Assembly (NCBI RefSeq): GCF_028641065.1
Contig: NC_073377.1
Span: 158,038,001 to 158,102,000, forward strand
Source of the DNA: Leucoraja erinacea
Taxonomy: Eukaryota
Length of the DNA: 64,000 nucleotides
Direction: 5' to 3'
Made by a program: the position numbers and the translations under genes. Below are positions 3,556-55,700 of this stretch, in pieces. The first letter of the stretch is position 1, and each line of letters opens with the position of its first letter. The notes beneath the pieces are model-generated. The model was not told the origin of the DNA and did no database searches. It worked only from the letters and a program-made list of their open reading frames with translations.

Positions 3556-4577
3556 CTACTTAAGATACCAAATATGTGAATCTTTTTTATAAAATCCTTC
3601 ACTTCTAGTAAGTTCAGAAATAAAATGAGGTAAGATTTAAGAAAAACATTGAGTTTGCCCAAAATATTCTAGAACATCGTAGCCAATAAATTTCACCTGC
3701 AGTAGAATTTCCTAAGTTATTAGTTCAGAAAAAAAACTTGAACGCCAATTGACAGCAAAAAAAGAAAACCAGATAAATAAAGTAATTTTAGTCATTTTGA
3801 TTCAGGAAATGGCATTGGGAAAAGTGGCCAGTGCCTTTGTATGAGTCCACACAACAATTTAGAACTTCCCAAGCAGATGGACGGGACTTTGATCTGTTAT
3901 CTCATCACAAAGACAAAGTGTGCAGATCTGAAATCAAATAACACCGTAGTCTGCATGTAGTATATTAAGTATATTTTGTAAACAGCAGAACAAGCAACAC
4001 ACAGGCAATTTCAACACAAACAATGAATTGACGACATATGTTTCTAAATGTATTTACAATTTTGTTACTTTAAACCGGCTAAGCTTTTCTAGCTTGTGAT
4101 TTAAGTAACATCCACAAATATTTTGAGCATCAAACTTCGAAGTTCATAGCAGCTAAACCCTCTGATCGTTTAAAAAAAGAATCACTTTAAAAGTTTGGGA
4201 TGCCAAATTAACCATTTCTTCTACCTACAGTAATTATTTCCTTCTTAATGCTCGAAAATCAAAAACAAATAGTTTCAAATAGAATTTTTGCTTTGGGGAC
4301 ATTGGTACTGGGCCTGTGATTGATGCTGTTGAGTGTATCTAGTGCCTCAGTCTGGGAGAAATGGCCCAAAAAAGGGTAACATTGGTTGGCGTATCCTTCC
4401 AGTGAGTATGAACAATATTGTGGAGATGCCACTGATCTATACCAGGCAAAACAGATACAAACACCTCCATTAGAATATCACTAAAGTAATGGCCGCAAGC
4501 CTAAAGCCTCCCACATATTTAACCAAAACTACACTCAAAGTCATAATATAAAGCCACACATGTCAAACTAATAGTTT

Positions 4578-4699
4578 AGGAAAGAACTGCAGATGCTGGT
4601 TTAAATTGAAGGTAGACACAAAATGCTGGAGTAACTCAGCGGGACAGGCAGCATCTCTGGAGAGAAGAAATGGGTGACGTTTCGGGTCGAGACCCTTCT
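4578..4699 (-). mobile_element. Short Penelope-derived terminal-repeat element with hammerhead-like motif
   Basis: Homologous to the PLE 3' end at 35041-35136. Flanked by 15-bp TSD tcaaactaatagttt (4563-4577, 4700-4714). Confidence 0.8.
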
Positions 4700-5839
4700 T
4701 CAAACTAATAGTTTGCAGTTTTACTGGAGGAAAAGTCACTTGATAATACTCATCATTGTTTGTTTATTCTTAATTATTAACCACAAAAAGCCTTGTCACT
4801 GATATACATTCCACCAATGAACTACAATGTATCTGGTAGTTCAAATACAGAAACATTTAACTCCAAAAGCTTATAAACATAGTGTACATTCTTTATTTTC
4901 TTCCATAAATGCTTATAAACACCAAGTTAAAAACTCAAAAACCTTCATATAACTTTAATTACATTTGTCCCCCATTATTGTTACATGATGTGATGTAAGA
5001 ATCTGGTTCTTGAGTAACATAAATAGCCATTTTGTAACATTTTAGAATTATAAAAGAGCATATGTTTTGTAAAGGAACATATTGCTACTGAGTTGGACAA
5101 TTTGTGCACAATATATTATTTATTGAAGTTATTTATTGAACAATAATTTCTGCTTCAATGTCCCAACTATTGTGTTAAGGACAGGATTTGTAACCTACCA
5201 TGACTAGGAACAGACGGGAAAAGAGCAAGCACAATTGATATTGTCAAAGGAAATATACTTTTATTCACAGTTGCTGTCATTCCAACACTTCACTTATGAA
5301 GGAAGTTTGAGGCAAATGACAGAACCATTTGAAATGCGAGCCTCTTCATACACCTAAACCAAGTCCAATGATGCTTTTAGCACCCTGATAACATTTAACC
5401 GCTCAAATATTAGTGCAACCGCCTTGGTTGTATTGACCAGGTGTCTTTCAAAATAGAAATGGTAAGTTAAAATAATTGTTCACATCCCGTAAGAAAAGTT
5501 TGCACTAAGCTCTTGCCACCCAGCAAGAAGCTACTGAAGCGCATCACAATTTACCAGCCAGGAGACCTCAGGTCTTTGCAAACAGGAGCCATTTCCCGCT
5601 TTGTAATTGTTTAAGATGGCGATGATTTTGTTTCAGAAACTCATTCTCTGAATGCAAGTGTTTCTAATGCAGTCATTTATTCATCCAACCACATGGATCT
5701 TGGCTGTATTCAAAATGTATGCAAGTAAATTTAATTACATTTATCAATTAGCGAAACGTGATTATAACTAATTTCTCCCATTATATATCCGGGCCGCTCC
5801 ATAATTCCTCAGCAGCATAATCACCGATGTTTTATAAAG

Positions 5840-6450
5840 CTATATCATAACTTCCCTATTGTTATATTCTATTCCCAGGCTATTGAAGGCATGTGTTCCA
5901 TTGTGCCTTCTTGACCACTGTATCTACCTGTGCTGCCACCTTCAGGGATTCTTGGACTTGCACAATAGAGTGCCTCTGTTCATCAATACTTTCAAATTCC
6001 CACTATACAATGTGTTTGTCCTACCCTTATTCATCTTCTGAAAGCGCATCAATTTGCACTGATCAGGATTATATTTCATCTTCCATGTCTCTGCCCCATT
6101 AAACAACTGATCAATATCATTATATCGCCTGTGACTATCTTCTTCATTATCAATAACTCAAAAATGTTCATGCCATTTTCAAACTTACTAATCATATATG
6201 CCAAGGTAGACCAAAATGCTGGAGAAACTCAGCGGGTGAGGCAGCATCTATGGAGCGAAGGAATGGGTGACCCTATATGCTACTTTCATATCCAAATTGC
6301 TAATGTACATACAAATATTAAGAGTCCCTGCAATGCTCCTGTAAAACACTACAGGTCGCAAGCTTCCAATCGCAAACCTACCCTCCACCATCATCATCTG
6401 TCTCCTATTACTAAACCAATTTTGTACTAGTTTAAAAGCCATCTTGTTGA
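5840..6450 (-). mobile_element. Old CR1 RT fragment interrupted by a ~70-bp PLE-tail fragment (6202-6273)
   Basis: ORF 6248-6442 VQNWFSNRRQMMMVEG. Insert flanked by tatatgc repeats. Confidence 0.65.
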
Positions 6451-6469
6451 AATCTCATTGTCTGCACCT

Positions 6470-6692
6470 CATTTTTACCTAGCCCTATCTTTCATTCATT
6501 TGTTCTATTTCTCTCTATATCACCGTCTCTATCTCTCGTTTCACTTTCCACTGAATCTCAGTCTATAGACAGGTCTCTACCCGAAATGTCACCTATTCCT
6601 TTTCTCCAGAGATTCTGTCTGACTCGCTGAGTTACTCCAGATTTTTGTGTCTGTCTTCGGTTTAAACCAGCATCTGCAGTTCCTTCCTACAC
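6470..6692 (+). mobile_element. Older PLE terminal-repeat element with decayed hammerhead-like motif
   Basis: cagtctatagacaggtctctacccgaaatgtcacctattcc...gagttactccag...cagcatctgcagttccttc. Confidence 0.7.
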
Positions 6693-9088
6693 GTATGAAC
6701 AGAAAGAATGTTTTAAGGAATGTTGCTGTTAAGACCATGGATTCTTTCTTGTATATGTGATAAATGTTCTAAATTTGTTGGGTGTGAAATCATAGACATT
6801 ACAGTATAATGTTACAGAATCTAATCCTCCTTTCACTGCCAAGTCCCTTTTCACTGTTGTGAAATACTAAACTCTTGAGGACTGAGGTCTCTCGTTATTT
6901 GTGGCTATTTTGTGTTTGGAGCTCCTTCCCACATCCCCAACCCCTCATTTTTGAGTAACATACATCCAGATCCAGTTGGAATAAGAAAACAAATTATACC
7001 TGGTACAACATATGGATTCAACCATTTTTTTCCAAAGAATCTGTTACTGCCACAGAAGCTATAAGTACCCAGTTTTACATATTTTTAGAATGTCTTATTA
7101 TTTTGCTCTCCTCGTAGCTCTGTCTGCTGGTTCAACATAGTTTCAGCAACGCTACAGTACATCATGCCAATGGGATATGGGATTGAGCCAACAAAATTAC
7201 GTTCCTTGAATTATTCAATATGGATGTTTCACAGTGCTACAGTTGAAGTTGCAAATAAAACCAGGTACGGCAGCACAGACAGAAACTTCAATGGTATTTG
7301 ACATTCTTATGTGTGACAGAGATGGATTACCTGCCCAAACTAATCCTGGGCCATGGGATTATGTTCTGCTTGCTAGGTTTTTATCCTTCTATGTCCAAAT
7401 ACAAAAGCCCTCCATCGATCTTGGCCTAGCCAGGATTCTTTCTGTTTCATTGTACGTTTAACTTCATTAATTTCTCTCAATATTCCTCTGTCTATTGTTA
7501 GTATTACCTTTTATTTAACCATGTGGTGTTTTCCACAAGCAGAATCTATTAGTGTGTGTGCGTGCATTAATTGCAAGCCTTGTTTATCTTTAATATTTCT
7601 TATTCTGATGAAGGCTGCATGTTTGCAAAACTATAACTGTCTATGTTTGTTTGACAAGATGAATACTTGCAATTTTCTCTGCGAGAAAAGGATTGTTCAA
7701 GAAATACTTCATTAATAAATGGCTTAGTTGAAAATCCCCTCTCTGTTATCTATGATCCCTAATGGAACATCAGCTCTCCCTCTCTCTCTCTCTCTGAGCG
7801 CTTGCAAGGACCAATCCAGGAACATTATCATTGCTGCTTCACTCACGAGGATGGCAGTTTTATGGAAACTAGACCTTGATACGAGCCACATATGTAATCA
7901 CTCATGTTCATGATAATGCAATTATACATTCCTCCAAATTGCCTGCATAACACCTTTATATGTTTTGGGCATGCAACCTGCATCCTATGACGAAAGCTGG
8001 ATACTGCCCTCAGGTTTCATCAGAAACTATCACTAGTGATGAATGTTTGATCGCTCTTACCAACACAGCTGGGTATCATGCAAACGTTTACAATCTCCTC
8101 CGTGTTCAGGACAGTCATTTACTTCCACACTTAATGTGCTCAATAATTCAACAGTTTAACACACAATGTTACAAGGTTTAAGAAAGAACACATTTGTATT
8201 TATGCAGTCTTCCATATTCTCAAAGTTTTATAGAGCACTCAGCAGCAAATGAATTATTTTAATACTTCACATTTTTGGTGTACAACCAAAGCTGTTTGCT
8301 ATTTTAAATAATAATATACCAGATATTTTTTTTTGGGTGGGAGAAGTGGAAACTAACGTAATTAAGGATGAAGCATTGAACGTGACAACTGAAAAGCTCT
8401 GTGTTTGTTTGTTGCTGTTAATGAAAGAAGATCTCTGGCAGACATGTCAGAGCAGGTTTCCAATGGAACTTAGCCCTTTAGATGGAGAAGAGAAAGTTAC
8501 TGACAATTAGGAGGGAGGGGGAATAACATAGCAGGGGGATAACATAGAATCAGTTTACTTTCTTCTAAATGAATATGGTTTGGATGAAATAAATTCTGAT
8601 ATTGTATATTCTGTTTAACTATAAAATAATGGATCTGCTGTTTTCACTACTAGAAATTGCACTAACACATTCGAAGCAATTTGCCCAAATAAGCATTTAT
8701 TGAGAGTGCAGTCACAAAAAAGGCAACTATTAAATCTTTAAAATATGATGTTTCTAATTTAATAAGAAACAGATTACTATGCATCAAAGCCACCAGCAAA
8801 TGATTCAATATTATTTTTTTCTTAATGATTTTAAAAATATCATTTACCTAATGTTAAGTTACTAACAGGTGGTAAGTTAATGCACCAATTAAAACCAGTC
8901 AAAACCTGTTTTGGTGTGAACCTATCACTCAAACACCAGTAGCAACTGGGTCTATGCTCTGCTGCACACCTGCCTTGGAAATCCAATTTGGCTTCTGTGA
9001 CCAGATGGTTAGATATACGAGAGAGAGAGGACAGTAGGTGAAGAGGTGAACGGGGATAGCTGGTGGATGGTTGTAATAGGGCTGGCTG

Positions 9089-9148
9089 TAATAGATTTAC
9101 AGCCATCCACCAATAGGGGATAGCTGGTGGATGGCTGTAAATCTGTTA
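9089..9148. repeat. 24-bp inverted repeat (hairpin, 12-nt loop) plus upstream direct repeat
   Basis: taatagatttacagccatccacca / tggtggatggctgtaaatctgtta (1 mismatch). ggggatagctggtggatgg duplicated at ~9052 and ~9116. Confidence 0.9.
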
Positions 9149-10188
9149 TTGTGAAGGGGGTAGGGTGAAAATAGTGAGGGATCAAGCAGGATAAATAGAC
9201 ATTGGGTCTGAACTGATCAAAAGACTGTGAACGAGTGAATCAGGAAACGGTTTGAATCATTTGAAAGCACTACTAGATTTAATTTATATTAATAGACTTT
9301 TGCAGAAAAAAAACATTCTCTTTTCACACTCATTCCCTAACTTATTAAATCACTGCTGAAAGGCTCTTTCTGGGAATACAATTTGCCAAGTATTTTTTGA
9401 TATGACCACCAACAGTCTCAAGAAAAGCAGTAATGGTGAACTGGGGCAAAATTGTTCTGTCCAATCACTGCTGCATATGTGCTTCCCCACTGCGCCCCTT
9501 CAAGCTAACTTCAAGTTAAATATTTGCTTCCAGCCTGCGTATCTAAATCTTAATTTATTAGTTCAGCAAACCATTGAAAAATGTGCACAGTTGATGTTTG
9601 GTCAGTACCAGCTGTAAAACACTCATGTTCATTCTGTCACTTCTGTGGCTCAATCGGAAAACCCTTTCTGTTCATTATTTTAAAATAGTAAAATAAAAAA
9701 TCTTTTGGACCAGATGAAAAGAGGATAAAGGGAAATTGATATAGCAATGGGAATACAAATGGTTTAGCTTCCAGTCCTCAACAATCCCAACTGCATATTT
9801 AAAATTCTCATCTGCGCATTAGTCCCACAACTCTCCAAAAATGTCCATTCTTTCAACTCCGGCATCTTGTTTCACCTTCCTCACACGTGGACTTACCAGC
9901 AATGGGATGCGATCAGCTGGTCCAATTACTCCCAAATTTTAACTCTGCCTCTTCAACTCAATGCATTTCTTTAACATTTTATTAAAATATACCTCTTTAA
10001 CTAATTTAATAATCACCTTGCTATAATATCTCCTCTCCATGCTAATTTGTGTTTAATTATATTGTGAATTATCTTTGGAATTTTCTGCACTAAAGTTGCT
10101 GTACAAATCCAAGCTATAATTGTTAATTGTCCAAATGAATTTTAATCGTAAACCACAAAGTCCTTTTCCAGGAGTCCTGATAATCTGT

Positions 10189-10382
10189 TTAAGAAGGAAC
10201 TGCAGATGCTGGAAAATCGAAGGTACACAAAAATTCTGGAAAAACTCAGTGGGTGCAGCAGCATCTATGGAGCGAAGGAAATATGCAACGTTTCGGGATG
10301 AAGGGTTTCGGCCCGAAACGTTGCCTATTTCCTTCGCTCCATGGATGCTGTTGCACCCACTGAGTTTCTCCAGCATTTTTGT
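10189..10382. mobile_element. Palindromic (head-to-head) PLE-derived mini element
   Basis: Two inverted copies of the PLE tail joined at the hammerhead region. 15-bp TSD gtcctgataatctgt (10174-10188, 10383-10397). Confidence 0.85.
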
Positions 10383-10774
10383 GTCCTGATAATCTGTCAA
10401 GACAAAAAACAATTCTATAAAATACTTGTACTTCCTTTCTCCTCATCTGGAAGCAATTGCCATTATTATGATAGCACCAACAAACTAAATAGATCATTTA
10501 TACCCCGAAAACAATGTGTTAAAATACATGCTGATCAGCACTACTTTGATATAAACCAATTCAGCAAAGTTTTTAAACGATCAAGAAAACGTTTGCATTT
10601 AAAGCAATCGCTAATCAATTTTATATACTTACTCATTCCCATTCCTTTATGTACACACTTACAATTTATTTTCAAAGACCTGCCACATAAATTCTATGAA
10701 GTGCAACAACTGATGCAGTTTGGTAGGATTATAATGCCAACAGATCTAAGTTATCACTTCTGCTGAAGGCACCT

Positions 10775-13083: not shown

Positions 13084-13084
13084 T

Positions 13085-13377: not shown

Positions 13378-15230
13378 ACTATGTATGCAAACCATTCAAA
13401 ATATCAAGCCCTTTTCACTTGCTTGACCATAACTTTGACTTTTGTACGCAAATTACATGATTTTTAAAATAAAATGGCATTACAAGATTTTATATAATGC
13501 AAGTTTGAGCATCAACAGGCTATGCTCACAATAATTCAGTTGCATAAATTCCTGCTAATTCAGAAGCTGGAAAACCACTGCTGTGCAGCCAGAATGAGTA
13601 GAACTCCTGAAAACTACAACTCACTCAAGCATTTCCTTGTTAAATACTTTTACCTACCTCTGAAACATACAACCAAGCTATTTACTTGGTCTGCGTAATA
13701 TCTGCTTTAAAATAGCAGCATGGACCACCAATGATTCCAAACCTGCATCAATAGGCTGTGGCCCCAAAAATATCAGCAAACAAAATTGAACTGCTATAAT
13801 TTTAATCAGTCATTAAGAGTCCTGATATCTGAACTCTGTATTAGCAGAATCACTGAATACGATTTGCTCTCTTGAAATTCTGACCAGGGAGCATGTACTA
13901 TTATCCAGGTGCTTGAGAAAGCTATCAAATGTAGACATTTTAAAATGTAACATTCAAAGGTGTGGGCATTTTTCTCATTGTATAAAATAAATACAGGCAT
14001 CAAAATTCAAACTATTATAGTATTAGTTTGATTAAATATTAGAAATAAATCAAACATTCAGTATATGTAAATGAATTTAAAATGTTGAAGAATATGTAAA
14101 GTTTATTAACTCAATACTTCTGTGTTACCATTAATAGATAACACATGTACCATTTCTGCCAAGTTAAATTATATTTGCCAATGTTTCATGCGTATCTTTT
14201 AATTACAGTGACTTCGAAACACTATTATCATATTAAATGCATATTATACCAACTCATTGTGGGAGCAAATTATAAATAGATATTTTTTTATATAATAAAT
14301 TCAAATATGATACAAATTCAGATACAAAAATAAATCTTATTAGGCAAAAAAGGAGTCAACGTTTATAATAATGCTCCTCTTATATTACAATTAGGTGTGT
14401 ATCCAATCATCTCAAATACATTTAGTCCCGAAAGACAGGGAACAGTTGGAAATAATAAGGTAATAATTGAACCAACCAGAGACCATGGAATAAATGTCAT
14501 GAATATCAGAAACTCAAAACTGAATTAAAGATGCACGCCATTTGTAATTGCCTATAATATGTGAATAATTTACTTTTTAAATATTTTAAATTTCTCCATT
14601 CCAATCCAACCTTCCCAAATATATTTACATAGTTTTAGCATGTTAAAACAAGTAAGATGGAAACAAAACTGCTACATCTGACTAAACCAAATTACAAATC
14701 CTAACATCATGATACAACTTCATATTTTTCCATATTGTCACGATGACCACTCATATTTACACCAACATCATAATACACCACAAATGTACACTGTTCTGTA
14801 CAGGTCAAAATTCAGAGAATCCCCTGATGCGCGGAAGCTATCCTGTTTAACAAATTGAGTTTCAGAACACTCAATTTTTCTCTAAAAGGTATCAACAAAC
14901 ATCTTGAGAAATAATTCTAATGATTTACAAAAGATATGCAACACAGCACTAATTTTCTGCTTTCAGCAATCTTAGATTAACATCTGTATACTCTCTATTT
15001 AATGGTACACACGAGATCATGTTCCCAATTCATCAGCAAAATTACAAAGTGTATGCATTCTTTAATCAGGTAAGACATCAAGAAATTTCTGTACTATACC
15101 AATCCTCTCATTTTCATCTGGACATTTGCGAAACACAATGTCATATGTTTTTTGTAAGAGCACAGATGAAGCATGATCTTGAATTAATTTCACAACGTAA
15201 TTAAAAATACAAAATTATTGCCAAACTCAC

Positions 15231-17011
15231 CGTGACATTTTCTCAGGAACGTATCCTTGCAGTGAATAGCCGTCATTTTTTCCAGCAGGTATGGAGTTCT
15301 GTGGCATGACAGAGTGTGATTTCCAGGATCCAAGTACAGTGCACACAGGAGTAATTAAATTTAAAAGCTGAGGTCTCGCATCCCTCATAAAGGGGCAGGG
15401 CATTGAAATTGTGCCACTGGCTCCAATTCTGTAATGAAACGATTGTCCAGTTGAATTAACACCTACAATGGTAGATGGGGGTGAACAGGTGGCTTGGCAG
15501 TAGCCCTCGTCACTTGGCTCCTGTTTGATCACTGTTGTGTTTGGTTGTGAAAAGGCATCATGTCCATAACTAGAACTGGAGGAAGATGCAAGAGCCCCTA
15601 AACTCCCATAAAGGTCAAACACATCTCCATAAGTTGTCTTGAGATCAATCAACTGATGTGCAATTTCTGAAAATGGATTTTCTGAAACTTGGCCAGTATA
15701 CCCTGTGTTCAGACAGGCAGTTTCATTCATCTCACATTTTAAAGGCATTGAGAACGTTGAATTACATAGGTCTGAACTACCTCTACTTAGGAAACATGAA
15801 TCGCTAAAATCACTGTCTACTTCTGTTTTTATAAACTGAACAGGATTGCCAATGTTAATTGAACTTGTCTTTAAACAATCAGTTTTTGTTTTCTCTTCTT
15901 TAAATACATTAATTTCCTCATGAATCTGATTTCTTCCTGCTGGGTTCTGATTCAGATTAATGATCATTCTTGACCCAGTAGCGGGACTGCAGTTGGGAAA
16001 GTGCATATTATTTACAGCAGTGCTGGAGACAGAAGAGGGCACACTGTTATTATTAGGGCTGGACAAAAGGGTATTACTAGTGGAGGCAGAATGAGGGGAA
16101 GCGAGATTAGTAGGAGTGGAAAGAGGCGAATTCATGTTATTAGGACTGGAGACTGAAGAACACAGGTTACTGACATGGACAGGGCTGCTGATGGAAGAGC
16201 ACAAACTATTCATATTACTAGGGCTAGACATGGTTCGGCTACTTATCTTGGCAGAACCTGAGACAGCGCAATGAATGTCATTTGGGCTAGTGACAGAATT
16301 ATTCAAATGATTGATGTTATCAGGGCTAGAGATGGAAGATCCCAAATTGCTAACAGTGTCCGGACTAGATAGAGCTAAGTAATTTATTTTAGCAGGACTA
16401 GGAACACAAGAGTTCATATTGTTAGGACTTGATACTGAAGAGCATAAATTATTATAGTTTATAGGACTGGAGATGCATGAACCTCGACTATTTCTTCCAG
16501 GACTAGAGGATGTAGAACATCGTCTCATCCCTCTCTGTGACAAGATAGCTTTCACCTTTTCCTCTTGAAGGTTCAATTCTTGTTCACCATTTTCAGCAAT
16601 ATTGCTGGACCTCCCCTCCATTTGTTCAGTCTGCAGGCTGTAGGTAAACTCGCTCTCCACATCTTTTACAGAATCCATATACAAACCCATAGACTCTGCA
16701 ACAGTTTTTGAGAGTTCTTTAGCAGATCCGAGATGACACTTTGGATCTGAAGCAAGAAAACCAGGGTGCTGATACTGATGTTGTATTTGATAAGGTGGTT
16801 GATGATGAAGGATGGGAGAGACCTCCTGCCTCCTCTCTCCATTATCACTCTTTGAAACAGGTGGTATGCAACTAACATTAACAATAGTCATTTCATTGCT
16901 GTCACAGCTACCAATTTCATTGTCGGCAGCACTCAACGCAAGTTTGTTTAGAGGCCACTGTCTTCCAATATTCATTATTTCTGGGTAGTCAATATATCCT
17001 TTGGTCTCCAT
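15231..17011 (-). CDS. NR3C2: Mineralocorticoid receptor, first coding exon (exon 2; N-terminal domain, ~593 aa)
   Basis: Starts METKGY. Contains KELSKTVAESMGLYMDSV, Ser-Ser-Pro repeats, IKQEP, IVGVNSTGQSFHYRIGASGTIS and DGYSLQGYVPE, all typical of the MR NTD. Ends at phase-2 donor CG|GTGAGT (GT at 15230-15229). The ORF-track stop lies in the intron. Later exons lie outside the window to the left. Confidence 0.96.
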
Positions 17012-20670: not shown

Positions 20671-20714
<44 letters not shown>

Positions 20715-22830: not shown

Positions 22831-23227
22831 GACTCCAATGGAAATATGCATAATCGAGGAAATTATAGACTGGTGAATCAATGGTAGGGAAGCTAATTCA
22901 AAGTTCAAAGTAAACGTTATTGTCAATTCAATTATGCAACAGTAGTTACACAGATTGAAATTACGTTTCCCCATACTCCAAATGTGCAAGTAATATTAAA
23001 AACACAGACAGACAACATACCAATAAAAATAGACAATAAACATTACATTATTTAAAATATTAAAATATTCACAGTGTGCCAAAATGTAGCAAAAACTTTG
23101 AGGTATTTTAAAAAGGGTGCAACAATGAAAGGTGCAATGGTAAGGACTCTCAGGATTAGGATTTTCTCCCCTTTGAAAGAGAATGGGTTAACTAGGGACG
23201 GCTAGCATGGCATTATCCTGAAGAGCA

Positions 23228-23428
23228 GGAGTAACTCAACGGGTTAGGCAGCATCCCTGGAGAAAAAGGATGGGTGTCATTTCAGGTCAGGACCCTTCTT
23301 CAGACTGAGAGAAGAGTCTGAAGAAAGGTCCCTTCATGAAATGTCACCCATCCTTTTTTTCTCCAGGGATGCTGCCTGGCCCGTTGAGTTACTCCAGCGT
23401 AAACCAGCATCTGTAGTTCGTTGTTTCC
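23228..23428. mobile_element. Palindromic PLE-derived mini element (older)
   Basis: ggagtaactcaacggg...cccttcttcagact-gagagaag-agtctgaagaaagg...cccgttgagttactcc. Confidence 0.8.
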
Positions 23429-23640
23429 AAATTTTGGCTTTGTCCAGGGCATGATTTGAGGAGGTGACAAAAGTGATTGATGAGGGGTTAGTCAAGTTTA
23501 ATTTAGTTTATTATTGGTAGGGAAGTGGATGGTGTCTACATGGACCTCAGTAAGGTATTTGGTAAGGTCCCTCATTATAGTCTGATCCAGAAGATTCCAA
23601 TGCATAGGATCCAAAGTGACTTGGAAATTTGGATTCAGAA

Positions 23641-24483: not shown

Positions 24484-25837
24484 GACAGAGAGTAGTGGTA
24501 AACGGGTTGCATTCTGGCTGGATATCTGTAACCAATGAAGTTCTACATGGATCAATGGTGGGAACGTTGTTGAACTTGTTTGTGACATATATAAATGTCT
24601 CGGACAAAAAGCAGATAGATTGCTTGCTAAATTTGCAGATGACACAAAAAACGGTGATGTTGTGGACAGCGAAGAAGGATGTCAAAGGTCACAGCAAGAT
24701 ATAAATCTGTGAGGTGTATAACTGTGAGATGTTGCACTTTGGGAGGTCAAATGTAAGGGGAAAGTACACAGCTGTTGGCAGGACTCTTGACAGCAATGAT
24801 GTACCTAAGGAACTTGGGTCCAAGTCTATAGCTCCCTGAAAGTGTGAATACAAGTAGATAGATAGGGTGATAAAGAAGGCATATAGTGTGCTTTCCTTCT
24901 TCAGTTGGGCATTAAGTCTAAGAGTCAGGAAGTCATGTTACACCTTTGCTTTAGCCACATTTGGAATATGAATTGCAGTTCTGGTTTCCCTATTACAGGA
25001 AGGATGTGAAGGGCCAGTGTGGGCTCTGACTTTGACTCTGGCATCGGGGGGAGAGGGAAGTGCAGGGGAGAGATAAGTTTTTTTGCCTTCCATCACAGCG
25101 AGGTGGAGATGCGCTGTGATGGATGTCTGTGTAAATTGTGTTGTGTCTTGGGTCTTTTTTTTCTTGTATGTATGACTGCAGAAACAACATTTCACTTGAG
25201 CCTCTATGAGGTTCAAGTGACAAATAAATTGTATTGTGTATTGCATTGTATTGTGGAGACTCAGGAGAGGATGTGGAAGAGGTGTACTGGGATGATGTCT
25301 GGATTAGAGGGTATTAATTATAAATTAATTGGATGAACTTGGATTGTTCTCTCTGGAATGCTGGTGGCTGAGGGGAGACCTGATCAATGTTTATTAAATT
25401 ACTAGACTAAGTGGGACCCGTTGGCTGGTCCCCCAACGCAATATTCCACACCTCTCCACCAATTCCACCCCAATATTGCTGGCCAGTGGGGGGGGGGGGG
25501 GGGGGGGGGGGTGGGTGGGGGGGGGGGGTCCCTGTGCCGGGTCTACCTTTCTGGCCCTCAGAGTGCTAGTATCAAGGGTGTTGTGGGCCGAAGGACTCAC
25601 CGGTTTCCAGAGGGCCAGTGTGGACATTGTGGGCTGAATGGATTCTTGGGCTGGCAGCTCAGTCACTCAGGCCTGGTGGGCTGGAAGTTCAGTCACTGCC
25701 AGGCCTGGTGGGCTGCCAGCTCAGAAACTGCCAGAAGTTCTGGCTAAAACAGGTGAGAGACTGTGAGAGAGAGGGTGGAGAATCAATTTTAGACATTTTC
25801 ATCTTTTTCTGCAAATCACAGCAAGGAAGGAGGAAAG

Positions 25838-26280
25838 GTTACACAAAAAAGCGGGAGAAACTCAGCGGGTGCAGTAGCATCTATGGAGCGAAGGAAATAG
25901 GCAACGTTTCGGGCCGAAACCCTTCTTCAGACTGATTGGGGGCGGGGGTGGACGGGGACAAGAAAGGAAAAAGGAGGAGGAGCCCGAAGGCTGGGGGATG
26001 GGAGGAGACAGCAGGGGGACTGAGGAAGGGGAGGAGACAGCAAGGACTAACAAAATTGGGAGAATTCGATGTTCATGCCCCCAGGATGCAGACTCCCCAA
26101 TCGGAATACGAGGTGCTGTTCCTCCAATTTCCAGTGCTGCTCGCTGTGGCCATGGAGGAGACCCAGGACAGAGAGGTCGGAGACGGAGTGGGAGGGGGAG
26201 TTGAAGTGCTGAGCCACCGGGAGGTCAGCTTGGTTATTGCGGACCGAGCGGAGGTGTTCGGCGAAACGATCGCCCAACCA
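25838..26280 (-). mobile_element. 5'-truncated Penelope-like element (GIY-YIG C-terminus + 3' tail) nested in Helitron
   Basis: ORF 26047-26277 DRFAEHLRSVRNNQADLPVAQHFN matches the end of 33570-34901. 15-bp TSD aaggaaggaggaaag (25823-25837, 26281-26295), present once at the empty site in Helitron copy 1. Confidence 0.9.
25900..25935 (-). ncRNA. Minimal hammerhead ribozyme motif
   Basis: AGU-CUGAAGA-A-GGGU(UUCG)GCCC-GAAA-CG-UU-GCC: CUGANGA/GAAA boxes, stem II and a palindromic stem III seed. Confidence 0.6.
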
Positions 26281-26599
26281 AAGGAAGGAGGAAAGTTTAG
26301 CCTGGCCTGGATCTCACAGGGAGCAAGTGAAGGGAGGGAGAAAAATACTGGGGTGAGGTTTAATACTTGCAGGGGGAATACTTACAGATGGGCCGAAGGA
26401 ACTCCTGGGCTAGTACAGGCCTGATGGGCTGAAGGGGCTCTTTAAAAAAAGAAATCAGAGTTAAATCTCAGTGAAAGGCACTTTTTCTGGCCTTTTCCGG
26501 GCCTGGCACGGGCCTTTTGGGCCAAAATGCTCCTCCTGGGCTAATACGGGCATTTTGGGCAAAAGGGACAGGTTTCTCGGCTAATAGTGGTTTCACGCA

Positions 26600-27030
26600 G
26601 GCCAAACAACTCATTTCATTTCATTTCCAATTGCATTGCAGTTTCAAGCAAAGGGCAGGCCAAATAGCTCATTGCATTTTCATTTCACTTCCATTGCCAT
26701 TTCAATTTCAAGCACAGGGCAGGGCAGGCCAAGCCAAACAGCTGATTGCATTTTCACTTAATTTCCATTGCCATTGCACTTTTAAGCACCGGGCAGTCTC
26801 AAGCCAAACAGCTGATGGCAATTTACTTCATTTCCATTGACATTGCACTTTCAAGCACAGGGCAGGCCCAAGCCAAACAGCTAATTGCATGTTCTTTACA
26901 TTTCCATTGCCATTGCACTTTCAAGCACAGGGCAGGCTCAAGCCAAACAGCTCAATGCATTTTCACTTCATTTCCATTGCCATTGCAGTCTCAAGCACAG
27001 GGCAGGCTAAACAACTCATTTCATTTTCAT
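26600..27030. repeat. ~65-70-bp minisatellite, ~6 units, inside Helitron copy 2
   Basis: Unit approx. ttccattgccattgcactttcaagcacagggcaggcccaagccaaacagctgattgcattttcacttca. Confidence 0.9.
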
Positions 27031-31752: not shown

Positions 31753-33569
31753 AGCAACATTACAATGTCCACTGCTCTTGCATTTACTAAAATAAACCAT
31801 ATTCTTACCCCTTTTCTGGTATTAAAGGCTTTCAGGCAAATTAGACCAAGACTGTTACAAAGCGAGGTTAATGCTTCTAAAAAGAGCCTGAAACACAGAC
31901 AAGCATTTTCTCCTGAGCAATTCTTTTTTTTTTTGCCATCATATGTCCAACACAACCATTTTTTTGCCAATAATTTAAATGGTAGGTGTTTAAAAACATG
32001 ACCCGCCCAATCTTGTAGCATTCGTTATGCCCGGAATATGTATGATGTACTCTATCCCAGACACAGGAAAAACTCACTTAGTACTGTTTCCTTTTTTCAG
32101 TAATTACTTCATGGCTATCAAGATATAAAGTAAGATGTGGCATGAAAATAACATTGTCATGATTTTGCCAGCATGAACATCAACAATAATTCTTCAACAA
32201 TTTACTGATCCACTCAACAGTTAAATGGCACAGCATCCCTATTTCTGAGTTAATGTAACTATTACCAAACTCAGATGGCAATATAATTACACACAACACA
32301 ATGGCAATCAAAATTTCCACAGAGCTCCCATTTAAAATGTTTTCCTGTGGAGAGTTTGAAATCTTTCCACATTTTTCCTGTAAACTTGTTACCATTTCCC
32401 TTCATTTTCCAAACGGTGCATAATCAGATGCCTTAACATTAAACAAATATGTATTCAAAAAATCATTCTTTTGCATTGTATATGATTATGATCACCTAGC
32501 TTTAAATAATATTATAGAAAGAATCACATCATTAACATTACAATTTTATAACTGAACAAGAACTTATCGTTACAGAACTAAATAATGTACAGGTGACTTA
32601 CATCACCAGATCATTCTAAACACTTGAAAGAATGTAGTCATTGTCACAAGACATGTATAATTTGATGACTTTTGAGAATTTATAGTTAAGCACTTTCTTC
32701 AATTGTAGTGAACACCTCATTCAATAATGTATTCTGTATCTGCTCTTGAGCAAACTCTGCTTTTTACATTGGTTTTATTCATTTATCTGGAAGCATATAC
32801 CACATACTTTGTCCCCCTTTGTCCCCCTCCGTCCCCACCTCAATGAGTTCCGCGCCCATCACGAGCTCTTCTACCGTCGCCTCCGCCTCACAGCTTTTTC
32901 CATGGGAAGGAGTCCTCGCCCCCCCATTGATGACCCCTTTTCCCGTCTCCAACGCACCCCCTCCTCGTGGAACCCCCCTCGTGGTCCTCCGGCTTTAGAA
33001 CTCTTTATTCAAAACTGCCGTCGCGACATCAACCGCCTCAACTTCTCCACTCCCCTGTCTCACTCCAATCTCTCCCCCCCCCCCGAACGTACTGCCATCG
33101 ACTCACTCCGCAACAACCCAGATTGGGTTATCAAACCAGCCGACAAGAGAGATGCCGTGGTAGTCTGGCGTGCCGATCTCTACAAAGCTGAGGCCACGCG
33201 CCAACTCTCGGCACCTCCTCCTACCTACCCCTGGACCATGACCCCACTGACGAGCACCAGGCCACTATCTCCAGCACTATTACCGACTTCATCAACTCCC
33301 ACACCCTGCCCAACCGAGCCTCCAACCTCAAAGTTCCCCAGCACCGCAGGGCCAGATTTTACCTTCTCCCCAAAATCCACAAACCTGACTGTCCAGGTAG
33401 ACCCATTGTCTCTGCCTGTTCGTGCCCCACCAAACTCATTTCCGCATACCTTGACTCCATCCTATCCCCTTTAGTTAAATCCCTCCCTACCTATGTTCAA
33501 GACACCTCAGACACTCTCCGTCATCTCCGCGCATTCCATTCTCTAGGCCCTCACCCCCTCATCTTCACC

Positions 33570-34901
33570 ATGGACGTCCAGTCACTCTACACCTCCATCC
33601 CCCACCAGGATGGTCTCAAAGCCCTCTGGTTCTTCCTCGACCAGAGAAGCAACCTATACCCAGCCACTGACACTCTCCTTCGCCTAGCGGAGCTGGTCCT
33701 TACCCTCAATAACTTCTCGTTTGACTCTTCCCATTTCCTCCAAATACAAGGCGTAGCTATGGGCACACGCATGGGCCCCAGCTACGCCTGCCTCTTTGTC
33801 GGGTACGTCGAACAATCCTTGTTCAATACGTACCAGGGCCCCATCCCCGACCTCTACCTCCGCTACATCGACGACTGCTTTGGTACCACCTCCTGCACCC
33901 GCACACAACTGACTGACTTCATCCACTTCACCACTAACTTTCATCTGGCACTCAAATACACCTGGACCATTTCCGACACTTCCCTACCATTCCTTGACCT
34001 CACTATCTCCATTGCAGGTGATAGACTTCTGACCGACATCCACTATAAACCAACTGACGCCCATGGCTATCTGGACTACACTTCTTCCCACCCTGCTTCC
34101 TGTAAGGACTCCATCCCCTACTCCCAATTCCTCCGTCTACGCCGCATCTGCTCCACGGATGAGGCGTTCCACACCAGGGCATCTGAAATGTTCTCATTCT
34201 TCAGGGAACGGGGATTCCCCTCCTCCACCATAGATGAGGCTCGCACCAGGATCTCTTCCTTACCCCGCAACACTGCTCTCTCTCCCCATCCCCCCACTCG
34301 CAACAAGGGCAGAGTCCACCTAGTCCTCACCTTTTGCCCCACCAGCCGTCACATACAAAAAGTAATCCTCCGTCAGTTTCGCCACCTCCAACGTGACCCC
34401 ACCACTCGCCACATCTTCCCATCTCCCCCCATGTCTGCCTTCCGCAAAGACCGCTCCCTCCATAACTCCCTTGTCAATTCTTCCCTTCCCTCCCGCACCA
34501 CCCCCTCATCGGGCACTTCCCATTGCAACCGCAAGAGATGCAACACTTGTCCCTTTACCTCCCCCCTCAACTCCATTCAAGGACCCAAGCAGTCATTCCA
34601 GGTGCAACAGAGGTTCACCTGCATCTCCTCCAACCTCATCTATTGCATCCGCTGCTGTAAATGTCAGCAGATCTACATCGGTGAGACTAAGCGGAGGCTG
34701 GGCAATCGTTTCGCCGAACACCTCCGCTCGGTCCGCAATAACCAACCTGACCTCCCGGTGGCTCAGCACTTCAACTCCCCCTCCCACTCCGTATCCGACC
34801 TCTCTGTCCTGGGTCTCCTCCATGGCCACAGCGAGCAGCACCGGAAATTGGAGGAACAGCACCTCATATTCCGCTTGGAGGTCTGCTTCCTGGGGGCATG
34901 A
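33570..34901 (+). pseudogene. PLE reverse transcriptase + Cys-rich linker + GIY-YIG endonuclease (open 443-aa segment)
   Basis: MDVQSLYTSIP, GVAMGTRMGPSYA, YIDD, FLDL, CNRKRCNTC linker, NLIYCIRC..IYIGETKRRLGNRFAEH. Confidence 0.9.
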
Positions 34902-35040
34902 ACATTGAATTCTCCCAATTTTGTTAGTCCTTGCTGTCTCCTCCCCTTCCTCAGCCCTCGAGCTGTCTCCTCCCATCCCCCAGCCCTCGGGCTCCTCCTC
35001 CTTCTTTTTCCTTTCTTCTCCCCGCCCCCCACCCCCCATC

Positions 35041-35074
35041 AGTCTGAAGAAGGGTTTCAGCCTGAAACGTTGCC
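35041..35074 (+). ncRNA. Minimal hammerhead ribozyme motif in PLE 3' terminal repeat
   Basis: AGU-CUGAAGA-A-GGGU(UUCA)GCCU-GAAA-CG-UU-GCC. Confidence 0.55.
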
Positions 35075-36027
35075 TATTTCCTTAGCTCCATAGATGCTGC
35101 TGCACCCGTTGAGTTTCTCCAGCATTTTTGTGTACCTACCACATTAGTAATATCAAGTGGTGGAAATAACAACTCTAAATTTATAAATCGGGTTAAGATT
35201 AAATTTCACAAGCAATGAAGAATGTTCATTCCATAATCTCATATTCTGTTATAGAGCTATTAAATCAATTGTTAATTGTTCTATAATATCAAACATGCTT
35301 TCAGTCAACAACAAAGAAATTTAGTTCTGGAAACAATCCTCTAGTTTGGATGTAAGCCATCGAGCAGGCATTTCATCAACAACGATTTTAAGAAGTTAAC
35401 TTTGGAAATTCTTGGTAAGATGTAAAATTATTATTTAATCGAGGATATAAAATGGAAAACTTTCCATTTTTCAGCTACCTTCACCTAGCAAGCATACGCT
35501 TTGTATTATGTTCTTTTCATGCAGCGGCAAGTTCTGACTTTCATCAAACCCACAGATGTGCTTCGCAAACAAAAACTGCAAAAAGCAGAAAGAAAGAGAG
35601 AGAGAGAGAGAGAGCGCGAGAACACGAACAAAACATTGTAAAAGCTGTGAAGTCAATTCAAACAAAGAAAGACTTTATTAACTTGGAATTGCAAGGCTGT
35701 ATGATATATACAACAAGTCTGGCCAATGTTGTGGATGGATGACCTACAGCATGACTGGCTAGTTCTGATACAAGGAAAGTGAATTACCTGAAGGTGTTGA
35801 TTTCAATGTTGAATCCAGGAAACTGGAACATATCCAAATGGACGATAAACTTGGGTGAGATTTTTTTGTGTAGAGTTAAACATACAAAAATATGCAGAGT
35901 TAAATAACAACCAAATAAGTTCTTGGGTACAAATTAGGACCTAACAGAATCATAAAATTCAGAAAATCTTCTAACCTTGGAACAATTCAAATGTTTGTAA
36001 TTATTGATTTTCTTTTAATGGACTCTT

Positions 36028-36880: not shown

Positions 36881-36914
36881 GGGAAGGCAAGGAAGCATCA
36901 TTTGATTGGCCATC

Positions 36915-40914: not shown

Positions 40915-41560
40915 AATAGACACAGAGGTGCTGGAGTATCTCAGAGGGTCAGGCAACATTTCTAGAGAACGCGGATAGGTGACGTATTGGAATGGGACTT
41001 TCTTTAGATCTATTGTGGCGGAGTGCAAGAAAGGTGGAAGAGAGGAGGGGCAGGACAAAACGTGACAAGTGATAGGTGGATGCAGGTGAGGGAGGGGTTT
41101 TATAGGTGGGGGTGGTTTAGTTAGTTTAGCTTATTGTCACGTGTACCGAGGTAGTGTGAAAAGATTTTGTTGTGTGCTAATCAGTCAAGAGAAAGCCAAT
41201 GCATCATTACAATCGAGCCATCCACAATGCACAGATACATGATGAAGTGAATAATGTTTAGTGCAAGATAAAGTCCAGTATAATCCGATCAAAGATAGTC
41301 TAAGAGTCTCCAATGAGGTCGGCAGCAGCTCAGAACAGCTCTCTAGTTGTTGGTTGGATGGTTCAGTTGGTGTATCTGTATTCACTCATCACTTCCCAGC
41401 TTTGTGCTGCCCCTCCTCTCCCCAGCATCACAATCTATCTGAAGAAGGACCCCAAATCAAAATGTCACCTAAGCCTGTTCTCCAGAGATGCTGCCTGGTC
41501 CACAGTGCTACTCCAGCACTTTGCGTCGGAGGATCTGCGGTTCCTTGTATCTACTCTGCT
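40915..41560. mobile_element. Decayed inverted PLE tails enclosing a Rex-type 3' UTR fragment (41115-41370)
   Basis: PLE tail minus at 40915-41110 and plus at 41385-41550 (tctgaagaagg...aatgtcacc). ttattgtcacgtgtaccgagg tail in between. Confidence 0.6.
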
Positions 41561-41584
41561 GAATAAATTTAGGTCAGTGAGATT

Positions 41585-51646: not shown

Positions 51647-51682
<36 letters not shown>

Positions 51683-52100: not shown

Positions 52101-52498
52101 AAAGTCTTTTCCTAAACGTTTCCCCGTTGTTGGGCTCATTCAATCCCTTTCAATTAGCATCACTATCTGTTTCCAACCTTCACTCTTCTTCCCCTCTGCC
52201 TGACTCTAGCTCTACTAGTGCCAAGCATCTCTCCTCTTCAAATACATCCCTCGAATCTAATCTAATCCTTTCTTTCCAATGCCAGACTCCAAATGGAAAG
52301 GTATACCGTAACGGTGAGCTTTTCTACAGCAGGTAATTTCCCCTTCTTCTGTGTAAGATTCCTCTGACCCTCTAGGGCCATAGGCAGCAGTTCAGGGATC
52401 TCCTCTGCGCAAGAAACCTGAACAGAGTTCATCGTCTTGCAGCAGAGTTCACCTGCAAACATTAAGCCTCAGCAACAAACATGACATAACTGCAGTGA

Positions 52499-52725
52499 AG
52501 GTAGACAAAAATGTTGGAGAAACTCAGCCGGTGTGGCAGCATCTATGGAGCGAAGGAAATAGGCGACGTTTCGGGTCGAGACCCATCTTCAGACTGCTGT
52601 ACTAGAAGGGTCTTGACCCGAAACGTCGCCTATTTCCTTCGCTCCATAGATGCTGCCTCACCCGCTGAGTTTCTCCAGCATTTTTGTCTACCTTCGATTT
52701 TCCAGCATCTGTAATACCTTCTTAA
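52499..52725. mobile_element. Palindromic PLE-derived mini element with hammerhead motif
   Basis: ~90-bp inverted arms. Minus-strand AGU-CUGAAGA-U-GGGU(CUCG)ACCC-GAAA-CG-UC-GCC at 52562-52596. 15-bp TSD acataact(g/a)cagtga. Confidence 0.87.
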
Positions 52726-55700
52726 ACATAACTACAGTGAGAATAGTTGCAGTCTGATGCAGCCAGCATCTCCTGAAGGGACCATTTGTTCCATGTGTCA
52801 GAGATCGCGTAAGCTGAAGCTAATTACCTAGGCTTAACAGCCGACTACAAGCTTTGAGTAGACATCTATGATATAGCTTTGGTAATAGTTGTCACAATGT
52901 TCCCTGAATCTTGCATGGTGTGACAGAAGCAAGTTGCCAAAGCAACTTTAGCTATTTTACTTCGGAGTCACGTGAGTGACTACGTGAAGAACCCGCCAGG
53001 ACGCATGCGTGTCATATCGTCTAACGCATTGCGTACAACTGGCAGGGTGGACGCGATTCTCCTGCCAGCAGTCAGACCTGAAGGTAAGTTTTTAAAACTT
53101 TTTCCAGGTTTTATCTTCCTGCAGGAACCACTACTTAGAGGTCCTGTAAAGCCCGGGGTGAAGTCCAGAGGACCCAGTCAAGGGAATACCGGTCACGACC
53201 TCGGGCACACCCGAAAACATCGGGATACCCCCCCCCCCCGACATATAGCCGCTTTAAAGACCGCTTGAATGCGGGAGCGGGCGGCGGTGAATTCGCCTCT
53301 CGGGCCACTGCCGTTGGAGCCAGCAGCCTCACACTGGTGCCGGTGGCACCTGGGAAAAACACAGCGGGGATACCCCAACACACAGCCGCCTCAAATACGG
53401 ATAGCAGAGGGGAGCATTGCAGCGGAGAAGTTGCCTCTCGGGCCGTTGGCGTTGGAGCCAGCGGCTTTATACTGGTGCCAGTGGCACCTTCACAGTGGGG
53501 ATACCCCCCGACAATGTATATCGCGGCTATCCCTTTCACAGGGACCGCGGGGATATCCCTGTTGCAGGAGCCGCGGGAATACCCAGCATGGCGGGGGGGG
53601 GGGGGAAAGTCCCGACTACAAGGGAACCCCGGCTGCATACAAGGACCTCAAGACCAAGCTCGAAGGGGGGGGGGGGGGGGGGGGGGGGGAGAAGGAGCGT
53701 TGCCCCCGCAGCAGAAGGGTTAAAACAGGACCTGCAGGTAAATTCTTTACTCTCAGGTTGTTTAGTTCTATTTCTGTGAGGATGTGTTACAGGAAAGGAA
53801 CCATGGACTAAGTCCAAATGGAGACTGACTGCGGAGGACCGCGGGAGTGCGGGCAGTCAGCATGGGTTGGCTACACCTGGACCGCTAATCGATCATCAGT
53901 CTCCGACCTGGCACCTGCACAGTCGGAATCGACACCACAGTCTGGCAGGAAGGCCAAGCAAAAATCGGACAGGCCGAAGACTCGGACGAGTCCTGCTGTG
54001 AAGACTCACCACTAGCGGGAGCAACTGATAGAATATCCTGCATGGAGCGGTTGATGGAGCAGATGCTCCAATGTGACATGCTCCGGTATATGGAGTCTAG
54101 TCACCATGGGGTCCTAGGATGCCCAAGGCAGCACCTTATTGAGGGCTGCATAATGCATCTCCCTCGACAGAGGGGAGCATTAGGATTCACTTCTGGGCTG
54201 ACTCTGAAGACATGGGTTTGGTTGAAGATACCACAAGTGTGCAGGAGGTGCAGGAAAAACACAACCAGCAGCAGGAGCTCGACGAGGGCCATTGGGCTCA
54301 GGAAGGCCACATCATCACACAAGACCTCACATCTCCAGCGGCAGCACCACTACGCACCCACCAGCAAACCACGATGCACTGAAGCTGGTGTAAGCTTGAA
54401 GGCCGTACAACCAGGACAAAGGTCTTTTTTAGGCCACAGCCCAGAACGGCCTTCCTGGAAGATGCGCCAACCCCGTACTGGAGCTCCTCTACCTCCCAGG
54501 AGCAGAAGTGCAAAATCATGCACACATGGTTGAGGCAGCTCCTGGGTCGGGTTGCACAAGTCCTCCCATTCGGATAAAGGTATGGAGCCACATCGATGAT
54601 GTCTCCTGTCACGGATACAAGTTGGTAATACTTAAACTGGTTTGAATATTTACACTGGTTTGGGATAACATAAGATTAGTTTATACTGCACAACAGGTAT
54701 GGTTGGAGTTGCCTTTCAAGGCAGGCTCACAATATGGGATGTGGACTGATCATTGTCAACAGCCTCAACCCGCATGTGCAGTATAGACATTTCTGAATAA
54801 CTTCCATGTGATCATTTCCTTTCACAGGGTTGAAGATATTTGAAATTTAACTGGATGAGGCAATGATACACTCAGGAGCGTTGCAAAATGGGCTAACTTC
54901 AGTTTCCAGATTATTTACCAAATCACTACTATCAGTGCTTCGACTGCACAGAGCTAACAAATAAGTGGCATGGCCAATCTGGATGATATTGAACATACTG
55001 TATTTTACTAAATTAGCCTTATCAGCCACATAGCTATATTTGAGAAATTGAGGTTCTCACCCATCCAGTTAAATTCAAATTAAGTTGATACCAACTGAAA
55101 CTATTGATTATTGGGATACAATCAAACCATTTATTTGTCTGGGATCAGCTCTGAGACAAAAGATTAGACCTCTGCAATTCTCAGCTGAAACTAACAAAGT
55201 CACAATGATGGACAAACAGTATTCAGTGTTGCTCCACTAAAAACCTCTCATATGTAAATCTGCAGTTATTTCCAAACTGATGCTATTGCCCAAAGATGGG
55301 AAATCTACTAATACCATCTCTAGTTACGGAGGCAGATGGGATTAACATGAGTTATCAAGTGTTCCGTCAAGGTATCAACTGTCAATGGACACCAGGTGCA
55401 TTCTGTGCATTAAAGGGCGTGTGGATATGCATAACCTGCATGCACAAGTCCAAGGTGATACACTTTGGTGGTGGTATATGTTAATCACAAAGGTACAATC
55501 AAATCAAAGTATCCGGTGATAGTTTTACCCAACCGCATTTAGCACTAGTGTATTATCATGCAAAATCAATAACAACACAGAATGAATGTGTGATCACAAA
55601 GTATTTAATGACATTGTGGATTGATGGAACATTAATGATTGAGATGCTTGCATCCAGGCTCAATCAAGAGTTGCAAAAAATACAAGGAATATTAGTGGCG

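Follow-up and report, generated by a model that had tools for sequence, protein, structure and literature searches.

Are short hammerhead-bearing sequences scattered around a retroelement a mobile family in their own right, or pieces of the element itself? The question is raised by a 64,000-nucleotide stretch of contig NC_073377.1 (positions 158,038,001 to 158,102,000; this whole stretch is called the window, and all positions below are counted within it), which holds a long copy of a Penelope-like element (PLE) at 32806–35136 and short relatives of its 3′ end. An initial annotation had read these relatives as a family resembling short interspersed elements (SINEs) or retrozymes, mobilised by the PLE and with 5′ ends defined by the ribozyme. 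We think it probable, at roughly 0.6, that the copies are 5′-truncated 3′ ends, that is, solo pseudo-long-terminal-repeat (pseudo-LTR) segments, of at least three Neptune-type PLE families, made from PLE RNA by PLE protein and carrying the hammerhead as a passenger. PLE hammerheads, solo ends, inverted ends and tails have all been published already, as have the ingredients of the two-priming model used below; the headline of the initial annotation is thus mostly known, and its new part, the ribozyme-made 5′ ends, fails. The interest of the copies is mechanistic, in how PLEs make one-tailed head-to-head insertions and what the PLE hammerhead is for. The minimal insertions found here give two countable predictions: the tail should lie on the shorter arm, and the 5′ ends should fall over the hammerhead core.

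Copies of a PLE 3′ end

All 11 loci named at the outset (4578, 6202, 6556, 10189, 23228, 25838, 31620, 35041, 40915, 41435 and 52499) do share the 3′ segment of the PLE. Since 10189, 23228 and 52499 are each a pair of arms set head to head, the 11 loci hold 14 arms, all of them collinear with the PLE 3′ end (each at E 1e-19 or better against a profile of the arms). A table of distances among the 14 arms sorts them into about three PLE families and groups the short arms with the copies that bear an open reading frame (ORF). The segment 50781–50907, which had been an input row of the profile, aligns poorly and was dropped as a further copy, and one more profile row (E 0.37) was left uncounted.

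The parent element (32806..35136, plus strand) is itself 5′-truncated and tail-less, and comprises a frame for reverse transcriptase (RT) and GIY-YIG endonuclease, a zinc-finger-like linker, a 3′ untranslated region (UTR) and the hammerhead. The frame is split in two pieces, at about 32818–33207 and 33213–34901. The RT matches RVT_1 with E 3.6e-8 and is followed by a C-terminal GIY-YIG domain; the Pfam family of the latter is unmatched on the window protein and on record for full-length homologues, and in the alignment the YIGE, His and Cys columns are invariant. Between the two domains, three cysteines are invariant in 12 of 12 aligned sequences and form a zinc-finger-like linker of the CX2-5CxxC type, a feature of Neptune that is common to Nematis too (PMC8557442). 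The element fits the Neptune type, a placement made by this linker rather than by an RT tree, and the PLE origin proposed for the copies stands, all of them being collinear with its 3′ end. The closest named homologues of the reading frame are from sharks and rays (62–68% identity).

Not every copy is a mini-element. Six of the 14 arms are not defined minis: five belong to longer copies (35041, 31620, 25838, 40915 and 41435) and the sixth, the tailed second-family copy at 6556..6697 (plus strand, decayed core), has an unplaced 5′ boundary. The copy at 25838–26280 (25823..26299 with its target-site duplication (TSD) of 15–19 bp, minus strand) is a 442-bp tail-less, 5′-truncated PLE containing the endonuclease C-terminus, the 3′ UTR and an intact hammerhead core in the region 25940–25892. 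The 31620 copy is the tailed 3′ end, with a decayed core, of an old third-family 5′-truncated PLE of ~1 kb (30449..31752, plus strand), which is interrupted by another repeat at about 30740–31055. Two further old third-family copies have decayed cores preceded by PLE 3′ UTR: 40915..41120 (minus strand, tail-less, about 110–140 nt of UTR, 5′ boundary approximate) and 41376..41550 (plus strand, partial tail, about 60 nt of UTR). The description of the copies as non-coding minis thus fails for several of them: 25838 has endonuclease coding sequence, 31620 ends an old PLE, and 40915 and 41435 have PLE 3′ UTR. The solo short copies are 4578–4699 (4563..4714 with its TSD, minus strand), which is tailed and starts inside the CUGAAGA box, and 6202..6273 (minus strand), the shortest of all, tail-less, starting ~3 nt upstream of the predicted cut and so without the catalytic core.

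Clear TSDs of 15–19 bp are present at 4 of the 11 loci, namely 4578 (15 bp, 4563–4577 and 4700–4714), 10189, 25838 and 52499; one random site pair in 300 scored 12 or more. The 8-bp repeat flanking the long PLE is marginal (null 7/300), and the old PLE at 30449..31752 has a possible 12-bp one with 1 mismatch. The 7-bp repeats flanking 6202 and 41435 are at chance level, and none was found on looking at 6556, 23228 and 40915. The claim that several copies have TSDs of their own is thus borne out at four loci, while at five there is nothing above chance.

The copies have two alternative 3′ ends, a short one at about 35131–35141 in PLE numbering and another ~33 nt beyond, the extra part being the PLE tail. 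Both are also seen in public reads, with loose ends at 35136 that have mixed flanks and others at 35137 that continue into the tail. (Four of 23 listed runs were mapped on 34300–35200 at 84% likeness, their source organisms may not be the window's species, and what is said of read joints and loose ends refers to the best-supported among those listed.) At the 5′ junction of 4578 the target end agrees at 6 of 7 positions with the PLE letters that would come just before the start of the copy; it is a microhomology junction. At the short-end junctions (35041, the right arm of 10189, the left arm of 52499, and 25838), the element end and the beginning of the TSD have 2–4 letters in common, a hint that microhomology may help priming. 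The copies thus display the terminal structures of PLEs: an optional tail at one end, an inverted 5′ copy and a TSD around the whole unit.

A SINE would be expected to look otherwise. The copies are collinear with the PLE throughout, start at differing places and have no fixed 5′ end; no match to a tRNA, 5S or 7SL RNA head was found with Rfam in the window, and none of its 29 tandem repeats involves PLE copies. With no sequence of their own, no common 5′ end, no tandem array and three different palindrome centres, they give no support to a SINE or retrozyme family strictly defined, although a sub-lineage that amplifies independently may exist. What does survive of that proposal is mobilisation by the PLE, its machinery having inserted the short copies with their own TSDs. 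An exact-pattern scan for the shared 3′ segment found no locus in viral or metagenome contigs, and a single match in a bacterial genome was rejected as unrelated beyond the pattern. A protein-based scan of viral contigs found no PLE relative.

A minimal type I hammerhead

The motif CUGAAGA-N-stem II-GAAA-CGU(C/U) is present as first described. In the PLE it occupies 35042..35073 on the plus strand, with a predicted cut after 35071. Its parts are a 2-bp stem I (35042–43 with 35072–73), CUGAAGA at 35044–50, an extra A at 35051, stem II (35052–55 with 35060–63), GAAA at 35064–67 and the self-complementary ACGU at 35067–70. Two results seem at first to speak against a ribozyme. There is no hammerhead among the 11 Rfam matches up to E 5, and the extra conservation of the core that had been looked for among the window copies is missing: 113 of 127 core letters are conserved against 588 of 693 in the 3′ segment and 176 of 196 in its best stretch. 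A core about as conserved as the remaining segment is, however, as expected of dead copies, and the CUGANGA and GAAA boxes with U16.1-H17, ordered around stem II, are intact in only 3 of 14 arms (25838, 35041 and the left arm of 52499). All four reported variants of stem II occur and can pair, but ACCU and GCCU are C-to-T changes at CpG and not compensatory.

Evidence for the hammerhead comes from more distant relatives. A protein-alignment scan of metagenome contigs gave 80 related PLE loci (38–66% identity), of which 50 were picked by hand for a match reaching towards the C-terminus; 43 of these had at least 250 nt downstream. A simple hammerhead descriptor matched the sense strand downstream in 17 of the 43 invertebrate loci, and neither the antisense strand (0/43) nor the ORF body (0/43). 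Fourteen of the 17 motifs were aligned, leaving out L031, L055 and L010, a duplicate of L008. In the 14 alone 95% of the cells pair; together with four window copies 86% do, and the covariation exceeds that of all 500 shuffles and all slid registers, a significance that is overstated because the loci are related, several of them being from one family. A covariance model made from the 14 invertebrate motifs only has 21 matches in the window, of which the top seven are element arms (E 1e-4 to 0.08, rough values), the next best being at E 0.69. With the covariation of stems I and II and this independent model behind it, we regard the minimal type I hammerhead, whose stem III is the palindrome ACGU, as genuine despite the Rfam miss.

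Its anatomy is that of the minimal type I hammerheads of metazoan PLEs (PMC4209133), with which it shares the core boxes, the extra base between 9 and 10.1, the G10.1-C11.1 pair, the loopless palindromic 15.2–16.2 and the location in a terminal repeat. The G10.1-C11.1 position is G-C in 16 and G-U in 2 of the 18 aligned rows, and in the ACGU palindrome there is A-U in 17 and C-G or U-G in 15 of the 18; the extra base and the palindrome are both found here. The same source reports such hammerheads from fish Neptune, Poseidon and Xena PLEs, mostly single and tied to truncated PLEs. Stem I, called very short at the outset, is indeed so: two contiguous pairs in 4 of 4 window rows, both fitting the covarying register, as against 3–6 in 12 of the 14 invertebrate rows. 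The S. mansoni families have 4–5 bp in stem I and 7–8 bp in stem II, compared with 2 and 4 bp in the window, and D. virilis is the only report of a 2-bp helix I (PMC4209133).

Folding predictions speak against easy cleavage. In 4 of 4 window copies the predicted pair probability is at most 0.003 for stem I and 0.14 for stem II, while it is high in several invertebrate motifs, and single-strand folds of five copies are no stabler than shuffles, with the hammerhead fold not seen. Presumably selection maintains the hammerhead in the autonomous element, and it would be able to cut only as a dimer or with the help of protein. An alternative hairpin was noticed in two families (35046–35084 and equivalents), in which the purine-rich 5′ part of the core can pair with a pyrimidine-rich stretch just after the cut; it would hold the monomer inactive.

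5′ ends and head-to-head insertions

In PLE numbering the eight short arms start at about 35035, 35040, 35041, 35046, 35048, 35048, 35061 and 35069, so that six of the eight begin at 35035–35048. Not one of the 14 arms begins at the predicted cut, after 35071, and the proposal of a ribozyme-defined 5′ end is not upheld. Moreover, a cut there would give a 3′ product without the catalytic core, whereas the short arms hold most or all of it. Instead, the 5′ ends crowd over the core (5 of 11 insertions, P about 0.002 per insertion under a constant-hazard null). Public reads show a step in the same region. Depth over 35075–35105 is 8.6, 3.3, 3.2 and 5.1 times that of the endonuclease region (34734–34857) in the four runs, and depth in the bin containing the core, at 54–82% of that in the next one, is more than background. 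At 35042 there are loose 5′ ends whose flanks are mixed, in 335 reads of an RNA run and 176 contigs of a DNA run. There is no pile-up of read starts or ends anywhere, including the cut site, in three RNA runs, although such libraries would hardly show cut ends. In polyA run X21 the RNA of the 3′ segment is strand-symmetric (2530 versus 2348 reads) and 89% of the mapped reads continue into unlike flanks, a pattern that suggests read-through from transcripts of the host; reads of the PLE body are strand-biased. We also observed rare joints in DNA contigs, from 35078–35083 back to 35039–35052 and from 35131 to 35041 (depth 59–823 compared with about 1e7). The kind of joint is unspecified in the data, and they would seem to be tandem duplications of the core (about 32–43 nt) or of the whole 91-nt unit; so read, they would set one core behind another, as cleavage in a dimer requires. 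A reading of the same joints as palindrome centres was rejected, since for two of them the letter given as inserted would have fitted the minus strand.

A serious rival to truncated PLE ends is a short RNA with a start of its own. An independent non-autonomous family would then be made from a ~100–135-nt RNA that begins just upstream of the hammerhead, by its own start, a splice acceptor or a protein footprint, and is moved in trans as SINEs are; the palindromes too would arise from that RNA. The starts of the six short arms, the loose ends at 35042 and the sharp step in depth agree with it, and a pyrimidine tract ending in CAG just before the core (35005–35042) resembles a splice acceptor, a likeness to be set beside the D. 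virilis intron end that maps to helix I (PMC4209133). We nevertheless judge this family rather unlikely. It has no sequence of its own and no fixed start, and its supposed members sit in the same families as ORF-bearing copies. The RNA of the segment behaves as host read-through would, no starts or ends pile up, and no splice joint, including a spliced form that would lengthen stem I, is among the best 15 of 174 read joints.

The three palindromes are the most informative of the truncated PLE ends. That at 10174..10397 has one 15-bp TSD (10174–10188 and 10383–10397) around both arms, a tailed left arm (10189–10297, minus strand) and a tail-less right arm (10298–10382, plus strand) that reaches further 5′. 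The one at 52484..52740 is likewise enclosed by a single 15-bp TSD with 1 mismatch (52484–52498 and 52726–52740); here the left arm (52499–52596, minus strand) is tail-less, has an intact core and extends further 5′, and the right arm (52604–52725, plus strand) is tailed and without the CUGA box. Because one TSD encloses both arms, both outer ends of each of these insertions are PLE 3′ ends. The second-family palindrome at 23225..23432, for which no TSD was found, has a left arm (minus strand) that is tail-less, 3′-shortened and further extended 5′, and a tailed right arm (plus strand) with an internal deletion. In all three, therefore, the tail is on one arm only and the tail-less arm extends 6–15 nt further 5′. 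The nearest neighbour of each arm is its partner (6/6). The three centres all differ; those of 10189 and 23228 are small hairpins, the former a micro-hairpin of the hammerhead sequence itself and the latter an 11-bp stem with an 8-nt loop.

The invertebrate loci offer a second sample, as the invertebrate-only model also matched minus-strand hammerheads upstream of the ORF. Both arms are present at eight loci, with 13–16-bp TSDs at four of them (L007, L035, L061 and L055; null 12/300). In all four scorable ORF-bearing loci (L007, L025, L035 and L061) the tail is on the short inverted arm, which is far shorter than the direct arm, and at none of the eight is it found at both ends or only on the longer arm. 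Over window and invertebrates the tail is thus on the shorter arm in 7 of 7 scorable cases, for which the chance would be 1 in 128 if cases were random and independent, an independence that is incomplete. Seven other loci have tailed direct ends without a minus-strand match in the flank examined, so that the tail site can also prime long copies. At L055:3301–3594 there is an invertebrate mini-palindrome of two hammerhead-bearing arms with a 13-bp TSD and one arm 27 nt longer, unscored for polarity; it repeats the layout of the window palindromes in a family unrelated to theirs.

Inverted pseudo-LTR insertions with an optional 30–40-bp tail have been described before (PMC3846280, PMC8557442, PMC2377424; PMC8969392 also treats the inverted ends, one-end tail, TSDs and junction palindromes). 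The head-to-head layout, the TSD around the whole unit, the tail at one end, the palindromes at the junction and the heavy 5′ truncation are the same. The window palindromes differ in that the whole insertion consists of two 80–135-bp arms without ORF, in TSDs of ~15 bp against 8–10 in print, in 5′ ends that crowd on the hammerhead and in the tail on the 5′-shorter arm, a polarity not found stated in the portions of these papers at hand. Opposite-strand hammerhead pairs are known in fish PLEs at 100–700 bp apart (PMC4209133), whereas those of the window are almost adjacent, and the available text of that source does not name cartilaginous fishes among the hosts. We found no literature on chondrichthyan copies, core-crowded 5′ ends or tail polarity, in a search confined to main texts, for the most part of freely readable papers.

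A mechanism that would produce these structures can be put together as follows. The endonuclease would make a staggered cut ~15 nt apart, and the free 3′ end of either strand could serve as primer for reverse transcription from one of two places, the short start site or the tail start site. Where one strand primes, the end of the complementary DNA (cDNA) would join the other target end by microhomology and leave a solo copy, as at 4578. Where both strands prime, one per site, the 3′ end of the longer tail-less cDNA would fold back on itself or anneal to the tail-primed cDNA, and extension from this pairing would yield two arms head to head, the shorter of them tailed. In this lineage the hammerhead region would be where cDNA synthesis, or its RNA template, usually ends, and the short hairpins of that region may supply the pairing sites. 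The biochemistry of a Poseidon PLE, PAc of Anolis, is close to this (PMC11167929). Its protein, which is predicted to dimerise, cuts both strands of the target in vitro and extends both; the hammerhead of PAc lies upstream of two RT start sites that delimit the tail, and insertion does not need cleavage by this hammerhead, which is protein-assisted. As in the public reads mapped here, no RNA-seq ends fall at the cleavage site. PAc belongs to a different clade, its start sites are described as non-homologous compared with the 2–4 shared letters found here, and inverted products are not discussed in the available main text.

Several observations weigh against truncation with two primings. The window numbers are small (11 loci, 14 arms), its arms differ at the 5′ side by only 6–15 nt, the centres of palindromes are prone to mutation, and at 23228 the TSD is missing and the left arm has been shortened. 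Among the eight two-armed invertebrate loci, L066 and L077 are tail-less at both ends and L008 is unscored, and three of the four polarity cases come from one family. Only 1 of 10 invertebrate inverted arms starts within 3 nt of the core, the others starting about 46–770 nt upstream, so that the crowding of 5′ ends at the core is not general, and why ends cluster there in this lineage is left unexplained by two priming events. The constant-hazard null is crude and some of its lengths are approximate, the depth step comes in part from several families with a common 3′ segment but not ORF at 84% likeness, and no strand-change joint is among the best 15 of the 174 read joints.

It is possible, and we put it forward tentatively, that the mini-palindromes are records of an ordered two-sided integration. 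A PLE dimer would start synthesis on each side of a 15-nt staggered cut, with the leading cDNA made from the tail-less site and its shorter partner from the tail site. In cartilaginous fishes the hammerhead fold might then serve as a stop-and-join signal for reverse transcription more than as a nuclease, so that a 100-bp end fragment becomes very abundant and host introns receive many ready-made RNA hairpins.

A single priming event appears distinctly improbable. By antisense-template self-priming or an extrachromosomal hairpin DNA, as proposed in PMC3846280 and PMC8557442, one product would be resolved by the endonuclease with the tail left at one end, and arms that are mutual nearest neighbours, the hairpin centres of 10189 and 23228 and the strand bias of PLE-body RNA reads would agree with this. 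In three of three window palindromes, however, the tail is on one arm and extra 5′ letters are on the other, and since each arm holds letters absent from its partner, one cDNA from one site cannot template both. The much shorter inverted arm of ORF-bearing invertebrate loci and the both-strand extension observed in vitro (PMC11167929) also stand against it.

Least probable of all is a retrozyme-like unit spreading through self-cleaved or circular RNA with a ribozyme-cut 5′ end. In its favour, the motif is genuine and conserved, arm 6202 starts within 3 nt of the cut, rare tandem-like joints exist and vertebrate retrozymes derive from PLE pseudo-LTRs (preprint 10.64898/2026.07.22.740005). Against it, no arm starts at the cut, only 1 of the 8 short arms has an intact core, the window has no tandem array, those joints are at a minute depth, stem I is hardly predicted to form, and in RNA from head-to-head copies the motif is buried within long duplexes. 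Non-LTR retrozymes (PMC7229834; preprint 10.64898/2026.07.22.740005) resemble the window copies in being non-coding, bearing a type I hammerhead, being related to PLE pseudo-LTRs and existing also as dispersed monomers. They are head-to-tail tandems with working, mostly canonical hammerheads and circular RNAs; the window copies, unlike them, are solo or head-to-head, in most cases lack an intact core and start away from the cut.

As intron RNA, the palindromes 10189–10384, 23228–23430 and 52499–52727 would fold into long duplexes (−132 to −172 kcal/mol) which, if transcribed, could be a substrate for RNA editing or small-RNA processing. The Rfam matches were all sub-threshold and microRNA-like, and the four best of them lie on the palindromes; a microRNA reading of such matches was rejected, as they reflect the hairpins.

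Setting and neighbouring repeats

An exon of a host gene at 15230..17011 (minus strand, 594 amino acids) resembles the N-terminal region of the mineralocorticoid receptor, an assignment that serves as a lead only (feature score 0.90, low recognition value). The PLE copies are probably in introns of a mineralocorticoid receptor-like gene. Given this exon and the shark and ray homologues of the PLE, the window most likely represents intron sequence from a cartilaginous fish.

Inverted copies of a composite repeat, built of 30–32-nt and 70-nt tandem units, lie at 2327–3322 and about 25570–27229, and the PLE copy at 25838 is inserted into one of these two. Near the end of the window are two short inverted-repeat elements (59625–59923 and 60137–60368) with 85-nt arms that are 92–94% complementary. 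They are probably of the miniature inverted-repeat transposable element (MITE) kind and unrelated to the PLE ends.

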